Below, one piece after another: positions 2,782 through 44,642 of a stretch of 64,000 bases of DNA. The notes beneath the pieces were generated by a model. It was not told where the DNA came from. It saw only the letters and a list, made by a program, of their open reading frames with translations, and ran no database searches. The stretch is from NCBI GenBank assembly GCA_003971905.1, contig RSEE01000038.1, forward strand, positions 1 through 64,000, written 5' to 3'. The stretch comes from Moniliella sp. 'wahieum' (lineage: Eukaryota). The position numbers were made by a program, and so were the translations under genes. The number at the start of each line of letters is the position of its first letter. The stretch's first letter is position 1.

Positions 2782-3648
2782 GGTGGGGATGTGGCTGGAG
2801 GTGGTGGGGGGATGGCGGTGGCGGTGGCGGCGGGGCACGGGAGCGGGGCACGGGAGCGGTGGCACGGGAGCGGGGGCGGGGAGCGCTTGCGCGGTGCGCG
2901 TGCGTTGGATGCGGTGCCCGCAGCCGCAGCGGCCGCGTGGCCAGCCACGGGCCTGGCCTGGCCAGCGCCCCAGTCAGGCGTCGGGATGCCGGATGGGTCG
3001 ACGGGCGGAGCAAACGCAAGCGCCGACGGCGGAAATATTTTCCAGCACGCCGCGCGTGGCCTCAGCTCAGCTCAGCTCAGCCCTCAGTGCGCTCGCGCCG
3101 CCGCCTGGCCTGAGCGCGTCAGCGTTCGAGGGAACTGCACGCCCAGCGCTTGCACGCCGCGGCTGCGGTGGATGGGATGGGATTGCCATGTGATTTTGTC
3201 GGGGCGCGGCCGCGTTCAGCGCGCCAGCGCTCACCCGCCCAGCCACCGCCCACATGTCACAGCCGCACCCACACAGACCCCTCGGGCCCTCAGGCGTGCA
3301 CACGGCGCTCACCATCGCCACTGCCAACTAGCATTATGCATTCCCTCCCTGTTGCTATTCACCCGGGCGCTTTTCATCGACTGTCAGTCTCTGAGCCTCG
3401 CCCTTTTCAGCGCTCGCCTCCGAACCACGTCGAGCTCCTCCTTCAGCACTCACGCCGCCACCCCCTTCTATACACGGCGTAGTGCCTGGCGTCCGGCCAT
3501 TGGCCATCGTGCTGCCCCCGGCTCAGCCTTTTGTGCTACCTTTTGCACTTCCTGTTTCCTCTTCATGCACGTTCCCCTTCAGCTCAGCCAGGCTAGCTTG
3601 AACCTCATGCCCACCACCATCGGCCATCCATCCATCGTATTCCTCAAC

Positions 3649-4192
3649 TCAGTCTTGCGACGCACAGCCCCGGCACCCACAGTTTTGGCATTCCACCACC
3701 ACCGTCCCTGGCCGCAGCACCGCCTTTGGCACACGGCAGATGCACGTAGCGCCGTCGTAGTTGTTGTCGCGCGCCTGAATGCACCGCACACAGCACAACT
3801 TTTCGTATCCTTGCCGCTTCCACTTGGCCATCAGACTGGAAGAGCAGCCCGAACAGTGCAGCAAGCAACCTCTGTCAGTATGTACTTCCCCCCTGCGCAG
3901 CCAGCCTCAAGTCAATACTCAATACGTACTTGGCATCCGCATAGCGCTCCTTGATCAGCCAGTCGTACAGCTCTCGCGAAATCGCTTCGCGCTTGTAGTA
4001 GAGGTCGTAAATGTAGCGGGTGCGCATGTGCGCCAGCTGCAGAATGGGCCAGACCGACTCGGTACGGCGCTTGCCTTCATGCGACGCGGCCTCCGCCTCT
4101 CGCATCTTGCGCTCGTACTCGTCCAGAATGTCGGCAATCTCCTCAAACCCCTCTGGGGGAGCCTTGGTCCGGCTGGTGCGAATGGAGGGCAT
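3649..4192 (-). CDS. BUD31: Pre-mRNA splicing factor Bud31/G10
   Basis: [19 protein letters not shown]...[23 protein letters not shown]; intron 3836-3929; [18 protein letters not shown]...TCICRVPK...[14 protein letters not shown]. Confidence 0.97.
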
Positions 4193-4560
4193 GGTACAGT
4201 CACCGCTCGAACTGCGCGCAGAGCAGGGAGGCCAGGTGCGAAAAAGGCGGTAGTGGATCGGCTGCGGCAGCTGAACGAGCGTCGCGGTTGCCGTTGTCGT
4301 CTTCTCGTAGCCCTTTGGTGCTTCAAACACCAAATTCAAGGCGGAGGTGGTGGTTGCGCAGATGCAATTTCATCCATCCTCAAATGAATATTGATCACCG
4401 ATTGCCGATCATCGATCCCCCTCCTCCCCAAATTCCGCCCGCCTGAGCATACGCGTTCCACTGGCTGGGCCCCGGCGGTGCACACGCCAGCTCACGACCA
4501 ACCCTCGCCCGCCCCCATCACCCCATCTGCATCTCTATCGCCACCTCGTAACCGCAACCC

Positions 4561-5520
4561 ATGCAAACTGTGCTTGCTCCTGCCTCGGCCCCAGGCGGCT
4601 TGACTGCGGCTGGACCCAACCAGCGTGGCTTCAACCCCTACACCTCCAACGGCGGCTCCATCCTCGCTGTGGCAGGACAAGACTTTGTGTCTTGGCCGGC
4701 GACACTCGTCAGTCTGAAGGCTACAACATCCAAACCCGCTACAAGCCTCGCGTCTTTCGTCTGTACGTATCTCCCTCCCTCTCTATGATATTCTGTGCTT
4801 CTGTCTTGTCACATGTCATACTCATACGACCGCACCACCAGAAACGACCGTGCGACGTTGGCGACGAACGGGTTTGCCGCCGACGCTGAGGCGCTGGTGC
4901 AACTGGTCCGGGCTCGCTTGGAACTGTACCGCTATGCGCATGGCACATCGATGCCCTTGGCGGGCATTGCACGGATGCTGTGCACAATCCTATATGGAAA
5001 GCGCTTCTTCCCTTACTATGTATGGAATGTACTGGGTGGCCTGGATGAGGAGGGGAAGGGGGCGGTCTATTCCTTTGACCCGGTCGGCTCGTACGAACGG
5101 GAAGTGTGCCGAGCGGCAGGCGCGGCTCAAAGTCTACTCCAACCGTTCCTCGACTCGCAGGTAATGTACAAGAACCAAACTGCCACCCCAGGACGGCTGT
5201 TGCCCATCCCAGGTCACATTTCTCTCCAACATGCGATCAGCATCGCCACCGACTCCTTCACCTCGGCTACCGAGCGACACATTGAAGTTGGTGATGGCCT
5301 GGAGATCTTGTGGTGCGCAACCCCAAGGCGGAGACCACGGCAGAGACGAAGGATGAGGATGCACCGATGACAGCCGAGGATGCTTCGGTGTCGGTGCCGC
5401 CACCTGCAAATGCGCTCAACCTCCTCGCGGCTCCGTTCAATGCGGTTGAAGCGCAGGGGGGCGAGGATGAACAGCTTCCCGGTGCGACGCTGTAATTCGT
5501 AGGGAACTCAAGAGGACTAA
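4561..5520 (+). CDS. PRE7: 20S proteasome subunit beta-6 (PSMB1)
   Basis: FNPYTSNGGSILAVAG, AGDTRQSEGYNIQTRY, LYGKRFFPYYV, GKGAVYSFDPVGSYERE, SATERHIEVGDGLE, C-terminal ELKRD*; intron ~4764-4841; divergent from BUD31. Confidence 0.95.
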
Positions 5521-6806: not shown

Positions 6807-9790
6807 ATGCGTGCTGAGGGAATGCGTTTGGCGGCCCGCGTGGGCCTCCATCCCGCTGCTCGCAATGGTCGCGTCGGCCTGGGTGCCTTGCGCTCACCTC
6901 CCACCTCATCGCTCACCTCTGCGGCTCTCTTGGGGCAGCCGACTCGTGCGCCGCTCCTGTCCGTACGCCCACGCGCTTGGGTACCCCTTCCCCCCCCGAC
7001 TTCCCCCGCCTTACGGTACATGAGCGTGCGTGCGATCAGCTTCCGATTTGTGCCACGTATCGCATTTCGCCTCATCCGCCTTCCAGCTGCGCTCGGCATT
7101 ACAGGGGCCGGCATTTTGACCTATGCCAGTGGTAAGCTCGACGATGCGCGTGCCAGGCTGAATGAGTACTATCTCATGGCCGAGGGCCTGGCCGTTGAGG
7201 CAATTGGAACAGCTGGTGCATGGACCTCAGAGGCTCACGCTCAATTTGACACTTGGGTCAACAGTCTCGACTTTACCGCGCCCAGGAGAAACGCGACGAG
7301 TGGATTGATCGTGCCACCTCGATGCGTGAGCGAGCTCGCGACTTTTTTGCTGGCCTGGGGAGCGGAGATGAACCTGGATCGCGTCTTCTTCTGGTTCTTC
7401 TACTTCGTCCTCAGGGCCCGGGGGTAAGGGTCCCGCGGCTGCCTTGGCTGCCTCCCTCTTTGCCAAGTCTGGCTCGGACGAGCAGGCAGCCGATGAGGAG
7501 GAGGAAGCGTATGACTCGCAAGACAGCGCGGCCAGTTTGATGCACCTCACTCGCCAGCTAATTGAGGTGCGCAATATTCTCAAGACCATTGATCATACTG
7601 GCGAGGAGATCGCACTTCCCTCGATCGTTGTAATTGGCTCCCAGAGCAGCGGAAAGAGTTCGGTACTGGAGGCGATTGTTGGTCATGAGTTTTTGCCCAA
7701 GGGCTCTAACATGGTTACCCGCCGGCCCATCGAATTGACCCTGATTCACACGAAGGCAACTGGGAAGAAGGGGGACGTGGTGGAGTATGGCGAGTTCCCT
7801 GGCACGGGCCTAGGTCCGATCCGCGATTTCCGCCAGATCCAAGAGACGCTACGGGATATGAATTTGGCTGTACCCAAGGAACAAGCTGTATCCGACGTGC
7901 CCATCGAACTTCACATTCACTCGCCCCATGTGCCCGATCTGAGCATGATTGATCTGCCAGGCTACGTCCAGGTGGCTGGGATGGACCAGCCTGATGAGTT
8001 ACGGGAGAAGATCGAGAAGCTGTGTGAGCAGTACATTGCTCCCTCAACCAATAATGTGATCCTCGCTGTTTGTGCGGCGGATGTGGACTTGGCCAACTCT
8101 CCTGCCCTGCGAGCCAGCCGCAAGGTCGACCCGCTAGGCTCCGCACAATTGGTGTGATCACCAAGATGGACCTTGTCCCACCCGAAGTGGGAGCCTCGAT
8201 CCTATATGGAAACCGCTTCTCTCTTTGGGGTATGTGGGCGTGGTCGCCAAGAATCCGGTGTCCCTGATCAAGAGTCGACTGGGCCGGAGCCATAGGCGGT
8301 CGGGTTTGTCGTCCTTAACTGACTCGGTTGAGAAACAGGAGGATGACTACTTCGCCCAGAACGCAGTGGCGTTCGAGCCCCCGCTCAAGGGTCGCCACGC
8401 TGGGGTAGAACCTTTGCTGGGTACGGATGCCCTTCGGCGGAGGTTGATGACTGTGCTCGAGGAGAGCATGGGTTCGAGTTTGCAAGATGTGTCGACGGCG
8501 GTGCAGATGGAACTGGAGGAGGCGGCATACGCGTTTAAGGTGCAGTACAATGATCGCTCCATCTCCGCCGAGGCGTATGCAGCAGAGACGATTGATGCGC
8601 TCAAGCACCGTCTTCAACTGCTTGCCGATCAATTGGGCAAGCCCCAAGCTCGGGCACTGCTGAAGCACGCCTTGGACGAAAAGGTGCTGGACATTTTGGC
8701 TCAGATGTACTGGTCTGACGCCCGCACCGCCGAGCTTTGCGCTGCGGGGGAGGCCAAAATGCTCCCTGCACCCAAAACAGCTGAAGACATGGAGAAGATA
8801 GACGCAGCACTGGATCGGTACTGGAAGTACAAGCTTGACGCATCCACCTCGGCCCTGACCAAGGCAGGCATTGGCCGGCTCAGCACACAGATTGTTGTCA
8901 ATGCGATCCGCACGGAGCTGGAGCGTCTGCTCGCTTCGGAACCGTTTGCGCACCACAAATCCACTTCCGAGCGGGTTGAGGCATTGGCGGCGGCATTCTG
9001 CGTGAGCGTTTTACCCTAACGGCGGACCAGGTGGAGAATGCGATCAAGCCGCTCAAGTACGAGGTGGAGATTGAAGAGCGGGACTGGAGCACGGGGCGCA
9101 ATGATGCGACACTACTGCAGCGGGAACTGGACATGTGCACGGAAGCAGCCAAGCAACTCCGCTCCACCATCGGAAAGTCCCGTTTGAATGCGGCGGTGAG
9201 CCATGTGAAGGATCTGGATGAGCGGCAGCGGCAGCGTGCCGCCGCTCGCTGGAGGGCTATCAAAGAACGCTCGGCCCACCCGGATGCTCCCCCCACGGTG
9301 GAAGAGGACTTGGAAGCCAATGACCCTCTTCGTCCCGACTACAATGCCGCCTTGCTGGGTAAGGCCCGCGAGGCCATTTTCCTCGATGCCCGGGCCGACA
9401 TCTTGAAGAGGAGGTTGAAGGCGTTGGGCTCCAAGCGATGCAAGGCTGGACCCGGAGTACAGAGTGATGCATACTGCCCCGAGACGTTCCTCAACGTAGT
9501 AGCGGACAAGCTGACGTACACATCGGTCATGTTTATCAACATCGAACTGCTCGCGGAGTTTTTCTACCAGTTCCCGCGCGAGTTGGACACGCGCCTGGTC
9601 CAAGAGTTGAACCGTGGGGAAGTGGAGGCGTTTGCACGGGAGAACCCAGTGTGCGAGACCACCTGGATCTGCAAGGACGCAAGAGAAGCTGGAGCTGGTT
9701 CAGACCAAACTCGACACGCTCTTGAAGCTTTATCAGGGCAAGACGGCTCCGTTGCGACCGCAACCCAAGTCCAAGTGGTCCTTTTTCTAA
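6807..9790 (+). CDS. MGM1: Mitochondrial inner-membrane fusion dynamin-related GTPase
   Basis: Arg-rich presequence and hydrophobic segment; [77 protein letters not shown]; ends KWSFF*; several frameshifts. Confidence 0.95.
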
Positions 9791-10324
9791 TGCTTGCCTT
9801 ACTTGGCGACAGAGTCGGGGAACACCGATGGCGTGGTTCTCTGCACCTGCACTTGTTTCTTCGCCTGGTTTCGCCAGCGGCGCCCTCCTGTCTTTCTGTC
9901 AAGTCATCTGTTCTCTGCAAACACTTTCCCAGCCTGGGACCAACAGATAGCCATCGCGGACGCTTCCCTTTATGTCTCTGTTCTTCACACCTCTCCGATC
10001 TCACGTTTTATGCATACCATGTACATATCTACCCTGTTCCATGCTACGTGGGCCACCACTATAGACATATTCATAGAGTAGGGCAGAGACGGCTCAAAGG
10101 ACTGCGTTGTCTTCATATGTATTCCGCCGGGAGCATCCTTTTGGGGCGGGCGTGGTAGAAGGGCTAGACAGGGGATGGGGATGAGCATCCCAGGGAGTCC
10201 AGTCGCAGAAGAATGACAGGCTCAGGCGTATCGATGTCGTCCGAATAGGTGGGTGAGTCACATTAACCGGTTTTGTTACATCCCTCACCTTGTCCACCTA
10301 GAGGAGGGCCGATGGACCCGCAGT

Positions 10325-22869: not shown

Positions 22870-23099
22870 TGAGACCTGGATACTCTGGAGGGTGATGCAA
22901 TCGCAAGTAGTGGTGGTGGTGGTGGTCCTAAAGCCAGCCGAAACGCTACATATAGGAACATCAAGCCGCCAGTCGCCACCAGGGGCTAGGGTGCGGGACA
23001 AGGAAAACAGAGAAGCGAGAGACAACAACGGACTCCTAAGCCTGAGAGGGACTGAAGGACGTCGACCAAAACACACGAGCCACCCGCGGTTGCTCAACA
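22870..23099. mobile_element. Degenerate dispersed repeat, probable solo LTR (copy 1)
   Basis: Aligns along its length with 31306-31538 (GGTGATGCAATCGCA, AGTCGCCACCAGGGGCTA, CACGAGCCACC, terminal CTCAACA). Confidence 0.7.
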
Positions 23100-31305: not shown

Positions 31306-31538
31306 TGTGATGAGACCTGGAGTCCAGGTGGTCCTCGAGGGTGATGCAATCGCACTAGTGGTGGTGGTAATGGTCTAAGCCAACCAGCAACGCCTACTGA
31401 GGAACACCAAACAGCGAGTCGCCACCAGGGGCTAAGCTGCGGAACAAGGAAAAACAGGAGAGAGAAAACAACGGAACTCCTAGGCCTGAGGAGGAACTGA
31501 AGGGACATTGGCCAAAGCACGAGCCACCTGGCTCAACA
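31306..31538. mobile_element. Degenerate dispersed repeat, probable solo LTR (copy 2)
   Basis: TGT...ACA termini (TGTGATGAG...CTCAACA); homologous to 22870-23099. Confidence 0.7.
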
Positions 31539-38688: not shown

Positions 38689-38822
38689 GCAAAAAAGTGG
38701 CGGTGTGATGGGTGGGGCGCCGAAGGCTGCTCACAGCGAGTGAGAAGAGAGGAGGGGGGGCTTGCAGCCAACGTGAAACTTGAAGGACAGCGGCGTTGTG
38801 CACGGGCCAAACATGAGGTGGG

Positions 38823-38981
38823 TGTTGACATCCGTCCTAGGACCGCGCGGACCTGAGTCACGTGAGTCAGCTTTCATTCCTTCCGAGCTCGCACCAGTCT
38901 TCTGGACGAGTCAGTCGCAGAAGCTTCTTAGTCCAATACGACGTTCAGTGCTCACATTCTGTGGTAGTAGCGAGGCCGACA
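38823..38981 (+). repeat. 5' LTR (159 bp)
   Basis: TGTTGACATCC...GAGGCCGACA, direct repeat of the 3' LTR. Confidence 0.98.
38854..38869. promoter_or_regulatory. Tandem Gcn4/AP-1 sites overlapping an E-box (TGAGTCACGTGAGTCA) in the LTR
   Basis: Two exact TGAGTCA plus CACGTG; the same block is in the 3' LTR; binding not demonstrated. Confidence 0.5.
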
Positions 38982-39035
38982 GAGTTACATCCTTATCTGC
39001 TCATCCCTGAGCTGGCCAAAACTACACCCACAACC

Positions 39036-40283
39036 ATGGGCGCCAACGCTAACACCGATCTCTCGGTCAGCGACACCACAATGGTGAACAAGCGCGATTA
39101 CTGGACACCAACCGGTCGCGATCCGCCACCGATTGGCACCGACAACGAGGAACTCATGATGCTTTGCGCCGAAGCGCACCTGTGGTTCAAGAAGACGAAC
39201 GACATCGATGTCGTTAAAGAGAAGATCAACAGAGCTATACACGACAGAGCCGAGTGGCTTGGATGGAAGGACGAACCTACGTCTATCACGACAAACTGGG
39301 TTCGACGGGCTACGAATTTTGTGGTGCAAAACATCCACCAAATGGAAACTCAACCCAACGCAACTTTGGGGGCACCTACAGGCGCAGCCTCGCGACCCGA
39401 GTACGACCTTTACAGATCACTACGCGAGTCTCCCACCAAGAATATCAAGTGGCCTGATCTGAACAAAGACCCGTCCGCCTACAGCGCTTGGGAAGACGAA
39501 TTTCTCTTCGCGATAACAGATGCCCACCCCCACGCAAGCGACGTCGTCCAGAATGGTCGCAGCTCCCGCTACTTCACCGAGGACCTCGACAGACGCTTGC
39601 ACAACCTTCTTAGGGAAGCCATGCCGTCAACCCTCTTCCGGACGATCCGCACCCACCACGAAATATCATGCACCCAGGACACGCTGAACATGCTGCGTCA
39701 GCGGTATGGATATACGCCTACCGCAAACAGAGGGCCTCTACTCATTCGCTACTTTTCGGCCGACCAAGGAAACCGATCGGGTCGAGACTACCTCGACTAC
39801 ATGGAAGAGATCAGTGCAAGCCTGACGCGAGCGGGCATCCCACTTACGGAAGAGCAGGAACGCACTGGGATCCTACTCGGCTTACGCGACATGAGCATTC
39901 GCCAGCGTGAAGAGCGCTCGAGTCTAGACAAGTTACGGCAGGCCGTGATGGACATACCAGCCGCCACGTATCCCGGTGGAGAAAGGAAGAGAAACGGAGG
40001 CAAGCCGGTCAACGGAGGAACGCCTTGGACTCGACCCGACAGCGGGGGACGACCCACCAGCGGGGGAAAAAACTCCAGCGGGGGCAAAGCCGGCGACGAC
40101 AACCTCGCGGACACAAAGACCAAGGGGCAAGACCGCACCAACCAACCCTGGCGCAGCGCGACGTCTAATAAACCTGTTGTCCCTCCGCGCAACCCAGGCC
40201 GAGCCAACGCTCACGTCGCTCAGAGAGCGAGCTCTCCCGAGTCTGAAGTGATTGACGTTGATGCGGGCACAGCTGACTACTAG
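39036..40283 (+). CDS. gag: Copia Gag
   Basis: YSAWEDEF; UBN2/gag_2-like GRDYLDYMEEISASLTRAGIPLTEEQERTGILLGL; no CCHC knuckle; ends with TAG at 40281-40283. Confidence 0.85.
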   Translation: MGANANTDLSVSDTTMVNKRDYWTPTGRDPPPIGTDNEELMMLCAEAHLWFKKTNDIDVVKEKINRAIHDRAEWLGWKDEPTSITTNWVRRATNFVVQNIHQMETQPNATLGAPTGAASRPEYDLYRSLRESPTKNIKWPDLNKDPSAYSAWEDEFLFAITDAHPHASDVVQNGRSSRYFTEDLDRRLHNLLREAMPSTLFRTIRTHHEISCTQDTLNMLRQRYGYTPTANRGPLLIRYFSADQGNRSGRDYLDYMEEISASLTRAGIPLTEEQERTGILLGLRDMSIRQREERSSLDKLRQAVMDIPAATYPGGERKRNGGKPVNGGTPWTRPDSGGRPTSGGKNSSGGKAGDDNLADTKTKGQDRTNQPWRSATSNKPVVPPRNPGRANAHVAQRASSPESEVIDVDAGTADY

Positions 40284-43200
40284 GAACTCGGGGGCGAAAT
40301 GCGAATCATCCGGGCATTATATGACAGTGGGGCATTCCCATCCATTTGGAAAGACAAATCCGTCTTCACATCCATGACCCCTTGCGACGACGAGATAGAG
40401 GTTGCTAACGGGACACATGTAAAGGCGGAAGGACGAGGCACGGCCACAATCCGTATCCGATGCTTAGGAGGACACCAAATGGAGATAAAACTCCCCAACA
40501 GCCTATACATGCCCCGTTTCAGCCGAAATCTCGTCAGTGTAGCACACCTGTCGAACACCGGAATCGCATCATACTTCGCCCCACACCAGAAGGGTATCTG
40601 GCTTGGTAACCCAGGATCCACCCTACGAAAAGTAACCGGCAGTGACTATCAATTCACGATCTTACACAACCCGCGAACGCCACCCACACCCCTGCGGGCC
40701 ATGGCGACCAAACCGATCAAACCGGCCGACCCACCCTCAACCCCAAACTCCCTCGCAGCATCCCTGGCCCTGGACCACGTCTCTAAAGCCCACAAACGCT
40801 GGAACCACGCAGCCATCGACCTCTCCCCTGGCTTACACGATCGGAAACCGCAGGCCTCCGCGTCACAGCCAAGCATATCTCCCTCTGTCGTTCAGAGTGG
40901 GATTGCCCAACATGCGCGGTGGCACTAGCGACAGCATCGCCCCATCCGAGCCGGGACCGCCTCCGATCCAAAAGACCTTTCGAGGTCCTCCACGTCGACG
41001 TAGTAGACCTCCCCGGGTAACCGGCATGGGGCACGGATACGCCCTCGTCGCCGTTGATGACTTCACGCGGTACGTCTTCACCACAGCGATCCCGACAAAG
41101 GGCGCTGCAACGAAGGAACTGCGGAACCTCATATTGCGGGAGCAACGCTACGGCCCGGACAGACTGCTGCGGACTTTGCGCACGGACAACGCCCCCGAAT
41201 TGACAAGCGCACTGCAACCTTTTCTGGACGAGCAAGGCATCACGTCAGAACGGACAATCCCGGGGCAGAGTGCTAGCAACGGTGTGGCTGAGCGTGCCAT
41301 CCGAACCATAACGACTCGTGCAAGGCAGTTGCTCTTGGGTACAGGTCTTCCGACGTCGGACTGGTGGGAACACAGCCTCCACGCTGCGTGCTTCACCCAA
41401 AACCAAATGCCACTCAAAACATCCGGGGAAGACAACAAATCGCGATTTGAGCGATACAAAGGCCACGCATACTCGTTACCGATGCAACCCTTTGGCCGCG
41501 TTGCATACCTCCATCTGCCCGAGTCACGCCGCGAGCACAAGCTCAGCGCGCGGGCAGAGGAAGGTATGCTGGTAGGATACCACCATCAGCGCGGATCAAA
41601 GGGATGGCTCTTCGCCACATACCAACCATCCCTGGGTACCTTCACCTACCGCTGGTCGAAACCGTACAAATGGGGCAACGCCATCTACCCCCATCTCCAC
41701 CCCGACCACTTCCCACCCGACATCTCCAAATCACCTCAAATTAAAATCGACAGTGAAAAAGACGCTAACCCTACTCCGCCAGCCGCGGCAGCACCCATGC
41801 CCCGAACCGCCGCCACACCCCAGACACCCGCTCCCACCACCACCCCCTCCGCGCCGCTACCCCCTCCGCCAGCGCACCACCCGCACCTCCCTCGACCTGC
41901 ACACACTCCCAATCGCTGACGACCCCACCGACACGACCTACCATGCTCGTGCTGCAGCCGCCACGCCCCACTGCGCCGCACCAGAGATCGGCATCGCCCG
42001 CCCCCTACCTGACACATCCGCCCCCCCGTTTGCCGACACAGTTCAACCTCCCGAATACGCCGCCATGACTGCTCTCAGCGCACCCATCCACCCGGACACG
42101 GTTCAGCTCACCAAGGATGGCGTACCCCTCGCTCCCAAGACGCTCAAGGGTCTCGAGACTCACCCCTCCTTTGCCATGGTCAAGCAGGCTATGGCCGACG
42201 AGGTGGCCACACTCGCGCGATACGGCACCTACGAGGCTACGTACCCACCACCGGGTGCACAAATCCTCATAGGACTATGGCGCATCACCACAAAGACGGA
42301 CGCCGAGGGCCGGTTCCTGCGCCACCGCGCGCGCTTTGTCGCGGGCGGACACCAACAATCGGCCGAGACTTGGGGCCAGACGTTCGCACCATCGGTGCGC
42401 ACACCTGCCATCCTGACCCTCGTCGTGCTGGCCGAGAAGTATAAGTTTGGCCTCTTCTCGGCGGACGTCAATGCAGCGTACCTGAACGCCCCCCTCGAAG
42501 AAGCAGTCTACATCCGCCCACCCCCCTACTTCCCCGAAGCGGGTGGTCGCGTGTGGCGTCTCAAGAAGAGTCTATACGGGCTACATCAGAGCGGAGCAAA
42601 CTGGGCACGATACATCCGGAACCTGCTGCGTGACAAGCTCGGCTTCACGCAAAGCTTGACCGAGCCCTGCTTGTTCGTGCGCGCTGCACCACCGGGTGAG
42701 CAGATCCTCCTGGCGGTCCACACCGACGATCTGCTCCTCGCATGCAAGTCACACCAAAAGTACGAGGAGTTTATGGCCGAGAAAACACACACATTGATGT
42801 TCGTGGTAACGGTCCCCTTCACTACCACCTGGGATGCCAATACGATCGGATCGGTGGGGAGCTGTACCTGAGCCAACCAAAGTTCATCGAGGAAGTGGTG
42901 GCAAAGCACCACATCAAAGCCCCGTGGATCCGGACTCTCCCACATCCCGTACGGATGATACCGCCCCGTGCCGACCCTGAACCCCCATCCCTCCCAGCCT
43001 TGCGCAAGGCATATCAGGGGAAGATCGGATCGGGACTGTGGGCTGCACGAATGGGCCGGCCTGACTCCCTCTTCGCTATCACGGCCCTCAGCAGAGCCGC
43101 TGCCGACCCATCGCAGCAGCATCATCAAGCAGTCGATGACTTCCTTCGCTACCTGTACCATACTCGAGGAAAGGGCCTGAGGTTGACCCCAACATCAGAT

Positions 43201-43722
43201 GCACCGGCCATTGCGCTGTATACAGATTCCGACTTGGCGGGAGATCCCATCCAGGCACGCTCCACATCTGGATGCCTACTGATGGTGTACGGTGTGCCGG
43301 TGTCGTGGCGATCCATTCTTCAGCCGAAGAGCGTTACCAGTACCGCCGCCGCCGAATATACGGCAGGATATGATGGACTGGTTGACGCCAACTATGTCAA
43401 GAACATCATGATCGAGCTTGGGGCCATCGGCGAGGGTACACCCATTCATTGGTATTGCGACAATAAGTCTGTCGTCGATCTCGCCCACAAATTTGGCAGC
43501 ACCGGCAAGCTCCGAGAGCTGAAGATCCGGTACCACAATGTACGGCAACACGTGGACTCGGGCGAGGCCATACTTGTACACATCCCCGGCGAAAGGAACC
43601 CAGCGGACGTCCTCACCAAGCCTCTCGGCCGTCCCGCCCTGACAAGCCATCTTGCTCAACTCCGCGTCGAGGAGATGGATCCAGTCCACATGACTGGGCC
43701 CTCCGGTCAGCGGGGGTGTTGA
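40284..43722 (+). CDS. pol: Copia Pol (protease, integrase, RT, RNase H) with about 3-4 probable error frameshifts
   Basis: PR LYDSGA; IN HKRWNH..CPTC, VDDFTRY, LRTDNAPE, SNGVAERAIRT; RT RARFVAGG, DVNAAYLNA, LKKSLYGLHQSG, VHTDD; RH YTDSDLAGD, AAAEY, CDNKS, NPADVLTK. Confidence 0.93.
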
Positions 43723-43876
43723 CATCCGTCCTAGGACCGCGCGGACCCTGAGTCACGTGAGTCAGCTTTCATTCCTTCCGAGCTCGCACCAGTCTTCTGG
43801 ACGAGTCAGTCGCAGAAGCTTCTTAGTCCAATACGACGTTCAGTGCTCACATTCTGTGGTAGTAGCGAGGCCGACA
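43717..43876 (+). repeat. 3' LTR (160 bp)
   Basis: Direct repeat of the 5' LTR, preceded by a short G-rich tract AGCGGGGG. Confidence 0.98.
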
Positions 43877-44642
43877 GTGGGTAATAAAAGCGCTCAGTCG
43901 GGCGTTGGCCGGTGGCCGGTGGCGCCGTTTCGGGGCACTTTGGTCTTTAGTCCCGCCCGGGGCCGGCGGGGGAAGGAGGCAGACAGGAGAATTGATCGCT
44001 GGCAGTTTATAAGCGTTCTTGGGGATCTTAGGAATAGCCTTCCCACTGATCTCGCCGGTCCGTCTAGCATGAAGCTTGACCACCGTTCGGCCATCGTGCA
44101 TACTAGCAGGCCGTATATGCACTGTGGCAATTCACCACATCTACTCGGATTGGAAAACCCCCATTCACCAAACCCGTATCTCGGTCCTGAGGGGGTGATG
44201 GCGTCCAACTCTGAAGAACTGCGCTAAGTATGGCTTTCCATGGCTCACAATAGGGTCGACTCCCAAGGTGTGGTATGCGGAACTAGGTCGAGTTGGGTAA
44301 GCTATAGTAGAAACCAATGCACATTCACATGTCACACCTGCAGCGCCGACAATGTGGGGAAAGCGTGGCGCATGAGGTCAAATTCAGAGAGCATGAGGGG
44401 GACGGCATGCAAGGGGCGCTATAAAGGTGCGAGAATACAGCATGACAACAAATTAGTGCCTGTCAACGTGCTCGTGAGAGGTGATCAGTTGGCCGCGCGG
44501 GACAAGAGGGCCTAGGAAGGGGGAACGGGAAGAGGGGGGGGAAGGTATGAGATCTGAGAGATGAAGCGGAATAGCTGAGGGATGGGGGGAGACTGTGTTG
44601 TACACTTTTAACTTTCGAGCCACGAAGGGGCGGTTAAAGCGG

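Follow-up and report, generated by a model that had tools for sequence, protein, structure and literature searches.

A single in-frame UAG between gag and pol of a young Ty1/copia element: a probably inherited stop and a candidate for readthrough

How does a retrotransposon produce its Pol protein when a stop codon separates gag from pol within one and the same reading frame? This question is raised by a Ty1/copia long terminal repeat (LTR) retrotransposon of 5,054 bp, located at positions 38823-43876 of contig RSEE01000038.1 of Moniliella sp. 'wahieum'. The window analysed here comprised the first 64,000 nt of this contig, read on the forward strand. An earlier note, made from the letters of the window, had proposed that the family expresses Pol by UAG readthrough. 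Comparison of the sequence with its relatives indicated that the gag stop probably belongs to the family as a whole and did not arise as a nonsense mutation in this one copy (rough probability 0.8). Its bypass by readthrough, perhaps at a low basal rate or through an unrecognised signal, can be proposed tentatively, with slightly less than even odds.

Inspection of the junction revealed a gag open reading frame (ORF) of 415 codons that starts at ATG 39036 and closes with GAC TAC TAG, the TAG lying at 40281-40283. The same frame continues with GAA CTC GGG GGC GAA ATG (ATG at 40299-40301) CGA ATC ATC CGG GCA and then enters the protease motif LYDSGA, encoded by TTA TAT GAC AGT GGG GCA at 40317-40334. 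The ORF following the stop matched the Pfam family Pol_BBD, the copia protease barrel, from residue 13 past the stop (E 1.3e-12). The in-frame position of the UAG between gag and protease, as read in the earlier note, could be confirmed: in the assembled sequence gag and pol share one frame with exactly one stop between them, an arrangement which hinges on the length of the G5 run at 40290-94. Across the six coding pieces, the other 1,414 codons were free of in-frame stops, leaving TAG 40281 as the sole one, and all of the breaks in pol were frameshifts, in agreement with their previous description as indels. Since TAG, TAA, and TGA each terminate long ORFs in the window, the genetic code looks standard.

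Relatives of the element were sought by a HMMER scan of 1.84 billion representative proteins at E <=0.001, using gag plus protease as the query. A total of 95 proteins were retrieved, among which P0002 (410 amino acids) was the only gag match. Residues 90-408 of this protein matched residues 94-421 of the query with 28% identity over 342 columns, and the comparison with gag gave E values of 2e-24 pairwise and 4.4e-17 library-wide. The P0002 end, ...GEILSVDLALSDK, was aligned with the end of the element's gag, ...SEVIDVDAGTADY, and the last residues (...AHIATEDDISEGEILSVDLALSDK in P0002 and ...AHVAQRASSPESEVIDVDAGTADY in gag) place the two termini at most one residue apart. By our estimate, a random nonsense mutation would fall within two codons of the P0002 end point in about 0.3% of cases. 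The stop is probably inherited, because it is the only one in frame and coincides with the end of the P0002 gag. The earlier placement of the TAG exactly at the Gag/protease boundary was borne out, and the gag of P0002 ends at the homologous position.

P0002 is known from one contig of 5,089 nt. A contig of 5,089 nt with a depth of about 30 was also found in X1, a public sequencing run labelled food metagenome (share 0.18), and was collinear with the reverse transcriptase/RNase H region of the element (window 42104-43723, record positions 3398-4857). The two contigs are likely to be the same, in which case the gag of P0002 would be internal to its contig and would end at a true stop. Among the ten base differences listed for the X1 contig in 43350-43395, nine fall at third codon positions, a bias suggesting that pol has been under purifying selection since the two families diverged. 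The closest full pol was P0030 (1,070 amino acids), a pol-only protein with 27-36% identity, the first residue of which aligned without a gap with Met 40299.

Several points weigh against an inherited stop. Only one relative of the gag was found. The contigs that carry the P0030 clusters do not exceed 4,640 nt, so P0030 need not be the partner of P0002, and its initial M is the start chosen by a gene caller, which may be GTG or TTG. Moreover, no aligned X1 record covers the bin 40219-40409 that contains the TAG, so both the TAG and the G5 run are without read support. Searches for additional relatives added little: either gag against the 141 other retrieved proteins gave no match at E <0.2, gag alone gave none in a word-index protein search, and a profile search with gag and P0002 returned P0002 only. 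With P0030 as the query, nothing but P0030 itself exceeded 30% identity; the other hits were copia proteins of at most 31%, mostly from Closterium. Alignments of gag and RNase H against metagenome and viral contigs, used to look for the relatives' DNA, yielded no confirmed locus in any of the four scans.

The TAG could instead be confined to this copy, as a nonsense mutation or a miscalled base in a dead or mis-assembled element, the family otherwise having one continuous gag-pol ORF as most copia elements do. A single ORF is the rule among distant relatives, as 22 of the 95 matches, all of them distant single-ORF copia proteins, run across the junction without a stop, but none of these 22 has detectable gag similarity to the family. 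One transition would suffice to turn CAG or TGG into TAG at this site, where read cover is lacking; such a change would have had to strike at the natural C-terminus of the sole gag relative, with no second stop in about 1,415 codons. The broken pol of the assembled copy could also be taken as a sign of a private mutation, but the remaining defects are of the deletion type and are seen in a host gene as well. A private origin of the stop therefore appears quite unlikely.

The defects of pol were considered together with the quality of the assembly. As assembled, pol runs through frames 0, 2, 1, 2, and 1, and its breaks are found where bases repeat over a short stretch: CCCC (40822), CCCCGGG (about 41015), the C-rich linker 41700-42083, and AAAA/CACACA (about 42785). 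In the integrase piece, single bases appear to be missing at about 40822 and again at about 41017-41029, the change of frame from integrase to reverse transcriptase falls within the C-rich linker, and a further apparent 1-nt deletion lies at about 42775-42810 between reverse transcriptase and RNase H, where the flanking matches enclose 566 letters in the diverged contig of 5,089 nt but 565 in the window. Every break thus fits missing single bases at short runs. Five records of X1 could be aligned to the window, whereas X2 and X3, which belong to the same study, contributed none; the runs listed for the window sequence included no RNA run. X1 contigs at least 99% alike, with a depth of about 2.5, cover one of the breaks, and an extra C after 40822 restores the frame there. 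In a host MGM1/dynamin-like gene at 7372-10158, two changes of frame inside an 80-nt stretch (at about 8140 and at about 8215) break up conserved motifs (VDPLG..., LGYVGVV), leaving too little space for an intron. The frameshifts of pol at short runs, together with the two in this conserved host gene, suggest that the assembly carries frequent 1-nt deletions. The pol frameshifts are probably assembly errors, and the genomic copy of the element probably has no such breaks, which removes the objection that the stop belongs to a dead copy.

The same deletions make the shared frame of gag and pol less than fully secure, and this too weighs against the reading of an in-frame stop: the chance that the G5 run is mis-sized, so that pol lies out of the gag frame, can be put at about one in ten. 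In that case the in-frame appearance would be an artefact of the assembly, pol would lie at +1 or -1, and Pol would be made by Ty1-like frameshifting. Deletions of 1 nt recur at least four times in pol, once in the C-run of the 5' LTR, and twice in the host gene, and X1 has an extra C after 40822. With one G more, the pol frame would be open from 40252 and overlap gag by 32 nt, resembling Ty1, in which the gag-pol overlap is short. No known slippery heptamer was seen by eye in 40252-40283, and the unaligned gap able to hide an indel is only about 16 nt long. About six errors in the 63 runs of four or more bases in the element would amount to roughly one in ten for any given run. An artefact of this kind is judged improbable. 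Frame-based claims in the window, for the element and for host genes alike, need read support.

An AlphaFold model was built for 167 residues around the junction, with X in place of the stop. The mean predicted local distance difference test (pLDDT) score was 79.9, with values of 83-97 over residues 31-120 and about 50 over residues 1-33, and the confident fold begins at Met34, which corresponds to ATG 40299. Comparison with Ddi1 and retroviral proteases gave a VIA Z of 9.1 to DDI2 RVP and of 7.4-7.5 to the protease of human immunodeficiency virus (HIV) 1, with model residues 34-128 superposed on HIV 17-99. According to the model, the stop would stand six codons upstream of the first protease strand. 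Retroviral proteases possess 16-23 extra N-terminal residues before the start point of the model (HIV 17; feline immunodeficiency virus, 22; xenotropic murine leukaemia virus-related virus, 24). Such residues would straddle the stop here, which mildly favours a fusion protein, though the model is not confident in that part.

A confident fold that starts exactly at an AUG may also suggest that Pol is initiated separately at AUG 40299, by termination-coupled reinitiation or from a minor internal promoter or transcript, with no Gag-Pol fusion. The residues that would straddle the stop argue against such a start. The AUG lies five codons past the stop with a purine at -3, but the 17 ATGs between the gag ATG and 40299 make leaky scanning unlikely. 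The motif UGGGA, which marks calicivirus-type reinitiation, was absent from the 200 nt upstream (40101-40300). The match of AUG 40299 with residue 1 of the pol-only P0030 would fit a separate start as well, but it is limited by the same caller-assigned M, which need not be ATG. A separate start would also explain why no readthrough signal could be found, but in an LTR element free Pol would require a packaging mechanism of its own. A possible precedent is Tca2 (pCal), a Ty1/copia element of Candida albicans in which UGA separates gag from a pol of the same frame. Its junction contains a minor promoter, but Tca2 Pol tracked the promoter in the LTR, not the one at the junction (PMC2194720). The authors of the Tca2 work infer a non-canonical bypass (PMC2194720). 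A comparable non-canonical bypass in the present family, for example by reinitiation 15 nt downstream of the stop and yielding Pol free of Gag, is considered unlikely, as is separate initiation in general. If it were true, the element would offer a second, independent system for the bypass problem of Tca2. To our knowledge, Gag-free Pol made by reinitiation is not documented for LTR retrotransposons.

Under readthrough, the gag of the family would end at a genuine inherited stop, here UAG, and pol would continue its frame. The majority of ribosomes would terminate at the UAG and release Gag, while a minor fraction would bypass it and produce Gag-Pol, most likely through readthrough by a near-cognate tRNA, and the frequency of bypass would set the ratio of Gag to Pol. 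Both the bypass by readthrough and the existence of the fusion protein are what we infer from the arrangement of the junction.

The local sequence weighs against this reading in several respects. The context of the stop is GAC UAC UAG GAA CUC, in which the 3' hexamer GAACUC does not fit CARYYA, position +4 holds G in place of C, and the stop is preceded by AC in place of AA. CARYYA, C after the stop, and AA before the stop are the motifs quoted for readthrough (PMC2194720; bioRxiv 10.1101/2022.12.06.519325), and none of the short-context features (CARYYA, stop plus C or CUAG, AA before the stop) was present at the junction. The 123 nt from 40278 folded at -25.6 kcal/mol, whereas shuffled sequences averaged -29.9 and in 174 of 200 cases folded no worse; nested folds gave z scores between -0.6 and +2.0 across 20 window/offset combinations. 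The earlier note had suggested a stimulatory structure formed by CUCGGG/UCCGGG and AAUGC/GCAUU. An H-type pseudoknot search, scored by a crude pair count, did find CUCGGG 40287/UCCGGG 40309 together with AAUGC 40298/GCAUU 40332, but 65 of 300 shuffles equalled or beat this score and the candidate helix begins only 3 nt past the stop, so that the suggestion was not upheld. The combination typical of murine leukaemia virus (MuLV), a UAG with a spacer of about 8 nt and structure beyond chance, was not found. Furthermore, the junction of Tca2 on its own gave no readthrough in Saccharomyces cerevisiae (PMC2194720).

Splicing offers another way around the stop: a small in-frame intron holding the TAG could be removed from some transcripts to give a gag-pol mRNA. 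A branch-point-like CTGAC at 40273-77 is followed by TACTAG|G at the stop, which is probably a coincidence, and the GT at 40248 would allow an in-frame excision of 36 nt; this length is below that usual for fungal introns, and the 12 codons concerned are conserved at the protein level with P0002. Among GT-AG pairs that span the TAG at a distance of 30-300 nt, none has a donor of the form GT[AG]NG[TC], and the ten in-frame candidates with a branch point all have poor donors. The earlier note had named an intron removing the stop as a finding that would overturn readthrough; no consensus donor spans the stop, and a spliced gag-pol mRNA is regarded as very improbable.

Among known systems, Tca2 is the best-studied analogue: it too is a copia element of a fungus in which one in-frame stop separates gag from pol, lacks CARYYA, and has a bypass that its local sequence does not explain, but it differs in its UGA, its 8-nt purine-rich spacer, and a predicted bulged pseudoknot, compared with UAG and a helix spacing of 3 nt in the present element (PMC2194720). 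This comparison was made by description. VdLTRE5 of Verticillium dahliae VdLs.17 is a Ty1/copia element with UGA, LTRs of 159 bp, and a total length of 5,555 bp, is present in low copy number, and has no CARYYA; its authors call the layout 'very rare' (PMC3441728). It resembles the present element in its gag-stop-pol organisation and 159-bp LTRs, and differs in length (5,555 bp against 5,054 bp) and in UGA in place of UAG, again as compared by description only (PMC3441728). The gag-stop-pol layout of copia elements is therefore already published and rare, and the present element is a further case. The layout is rarer than the earlier note implied, but it had already been described for fungal copia elements. 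A literature keyword search found no copia element described with UAG at the gag/pol boundary, although such a search is no proof of absence.

Outside the fungal copia elements, Moloney MuLV and other gammaretroviruses are similar in having UAG followed by G, pol in the same frame, and protease directly past the stop, but belong to another superfamily with another domain order. MuLV also requires an 8-nt purine-rich spacer and a pseudoknot, neither of which is supported in the present element (PMC2194720). The Ty3/gypsy elements Tj1, Tcry1, and Tosmo1-3 of fission yeasts are fungal LTR elements in which an in-frame TGA parts Gag from Pol, and Tj1 cannot transpose without its stop; they differ in being gypsy elements with a strictly conserved GAA-TGA-CT and readthrough-favouring bases, none of which occurs here (bioRxiv 10.1101/2022.12.06.519325). 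Ty1 of S. cerevisiae shares the copia group, a gag without a zinc knuckle, and a protease directly past the gag end, but its pol lies at +1 with a short overlap, whereas the present pol is in frame 0 as assembled. For VdLTRE5, the published account covers the layout only (PMC3441728). An apparently very young family adds a point of comparison, with UAG instead of UGA and no recognisable signal, and would provide a testable system if its copies are active.

The features of the element are listed in Table 1. The LTR ends TG...CA and the short flanking duplication are those of Ty1/copia (Pseudoviridae), and the order of pol domains, Pol_BBD, rve plus SH3_retrovirus, and RVT_2 in Pfam with RNase H last, is the Ty1/copia order, so that the earlier assignment to copia was correct. 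The RNase H part had 36% identity to P0030 and aligned with copia polyproteins. The pol stop, TGA 43720-22, falls within the 3' LTR. The LTRs had been described as near-identical, and alignment with MAFFT revealed a single difference, one C in a C-run (CC against CCC). As the LTRs are alike save for this run length and the target-site duplication is intact, the insertion is very recent.

Table 1. Coordinates of the element and of its gag-pol junction in the window.
Feature	Positions	Strand	Basis
5' target-site duplication GTGGG	38818..38822	+	same 5-mer outside both LTRs
5' LTR, 159 bp, TGTTG...GACA	38823..38981	+	self-BLAST pair, 99.4%
gag ORF, 415 codons + TAG	39036..40283	+	ORF list, translation
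UAG stop, Gag/protease boundary	40281..40283	+	sole in-frame stop of coding pieces; aligns with P0002 end
Spacer, 15 nt, GAACUCGGGGGCGAA, includes G5 run 40290-40294	40284..40298	+	read from sequence
First ATG past stop; catalytic Asp 8 codons downstream	40299..40301	+	read from sequence
Protease + linker, window frame 0; DSG 40323-40331	40299..40822	+	Pfam Pol_BBD, AlphaFold model
Integrase; zinc-finger part frame 2 to 41017, core frame 1 from 41029	40823..41700	+	Pfam rve, SH3_retrovirus; tblastn with P0030
Reverse transcriptase RVT_2, frame 2	42083..42826	+	Pfam E 2e-30
RNase H + C-terminus, frame 1	42835..43722	+	frames, alignment with P0030
3' LTR, 160 bp	43717..43876	+	self-BLAST, alignment
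3' target-site duplication GTGGG	43877..43881	+	matches 5' copy

The gag matched no Pfam family, and neither its translation nor that of the relative P0002 showed a CCHC zinc knuckle. A feature search with gag returned gag-like clusters, among which a Ty1 TYA cluster ranked second with a score of 0.90, which can serve as a lead only. Self-BLAST and tblastn with five protein pieces found no sister copy in the 64-kb window. The stretch 38982-39011 following the 5' LTR (GAGTTACATCC...) looked, by eye, unlike the usual copia tRNA-Met primer binding sites. No tRNA gene was found in the window. The neighbouring genes are eukaryotic in character and include CHD1-like C-terminal domains, the MGM1-type dynamin, an annexin, and WD40 proteins. 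For the dynamin piece, Ascomycota was the most frequent taxon in a feature search, again no more than a lead. A direct repeat of 205 bp with 80% identity, unrelated to the copia element, was observed between 22885-23084 and 31334-31528.

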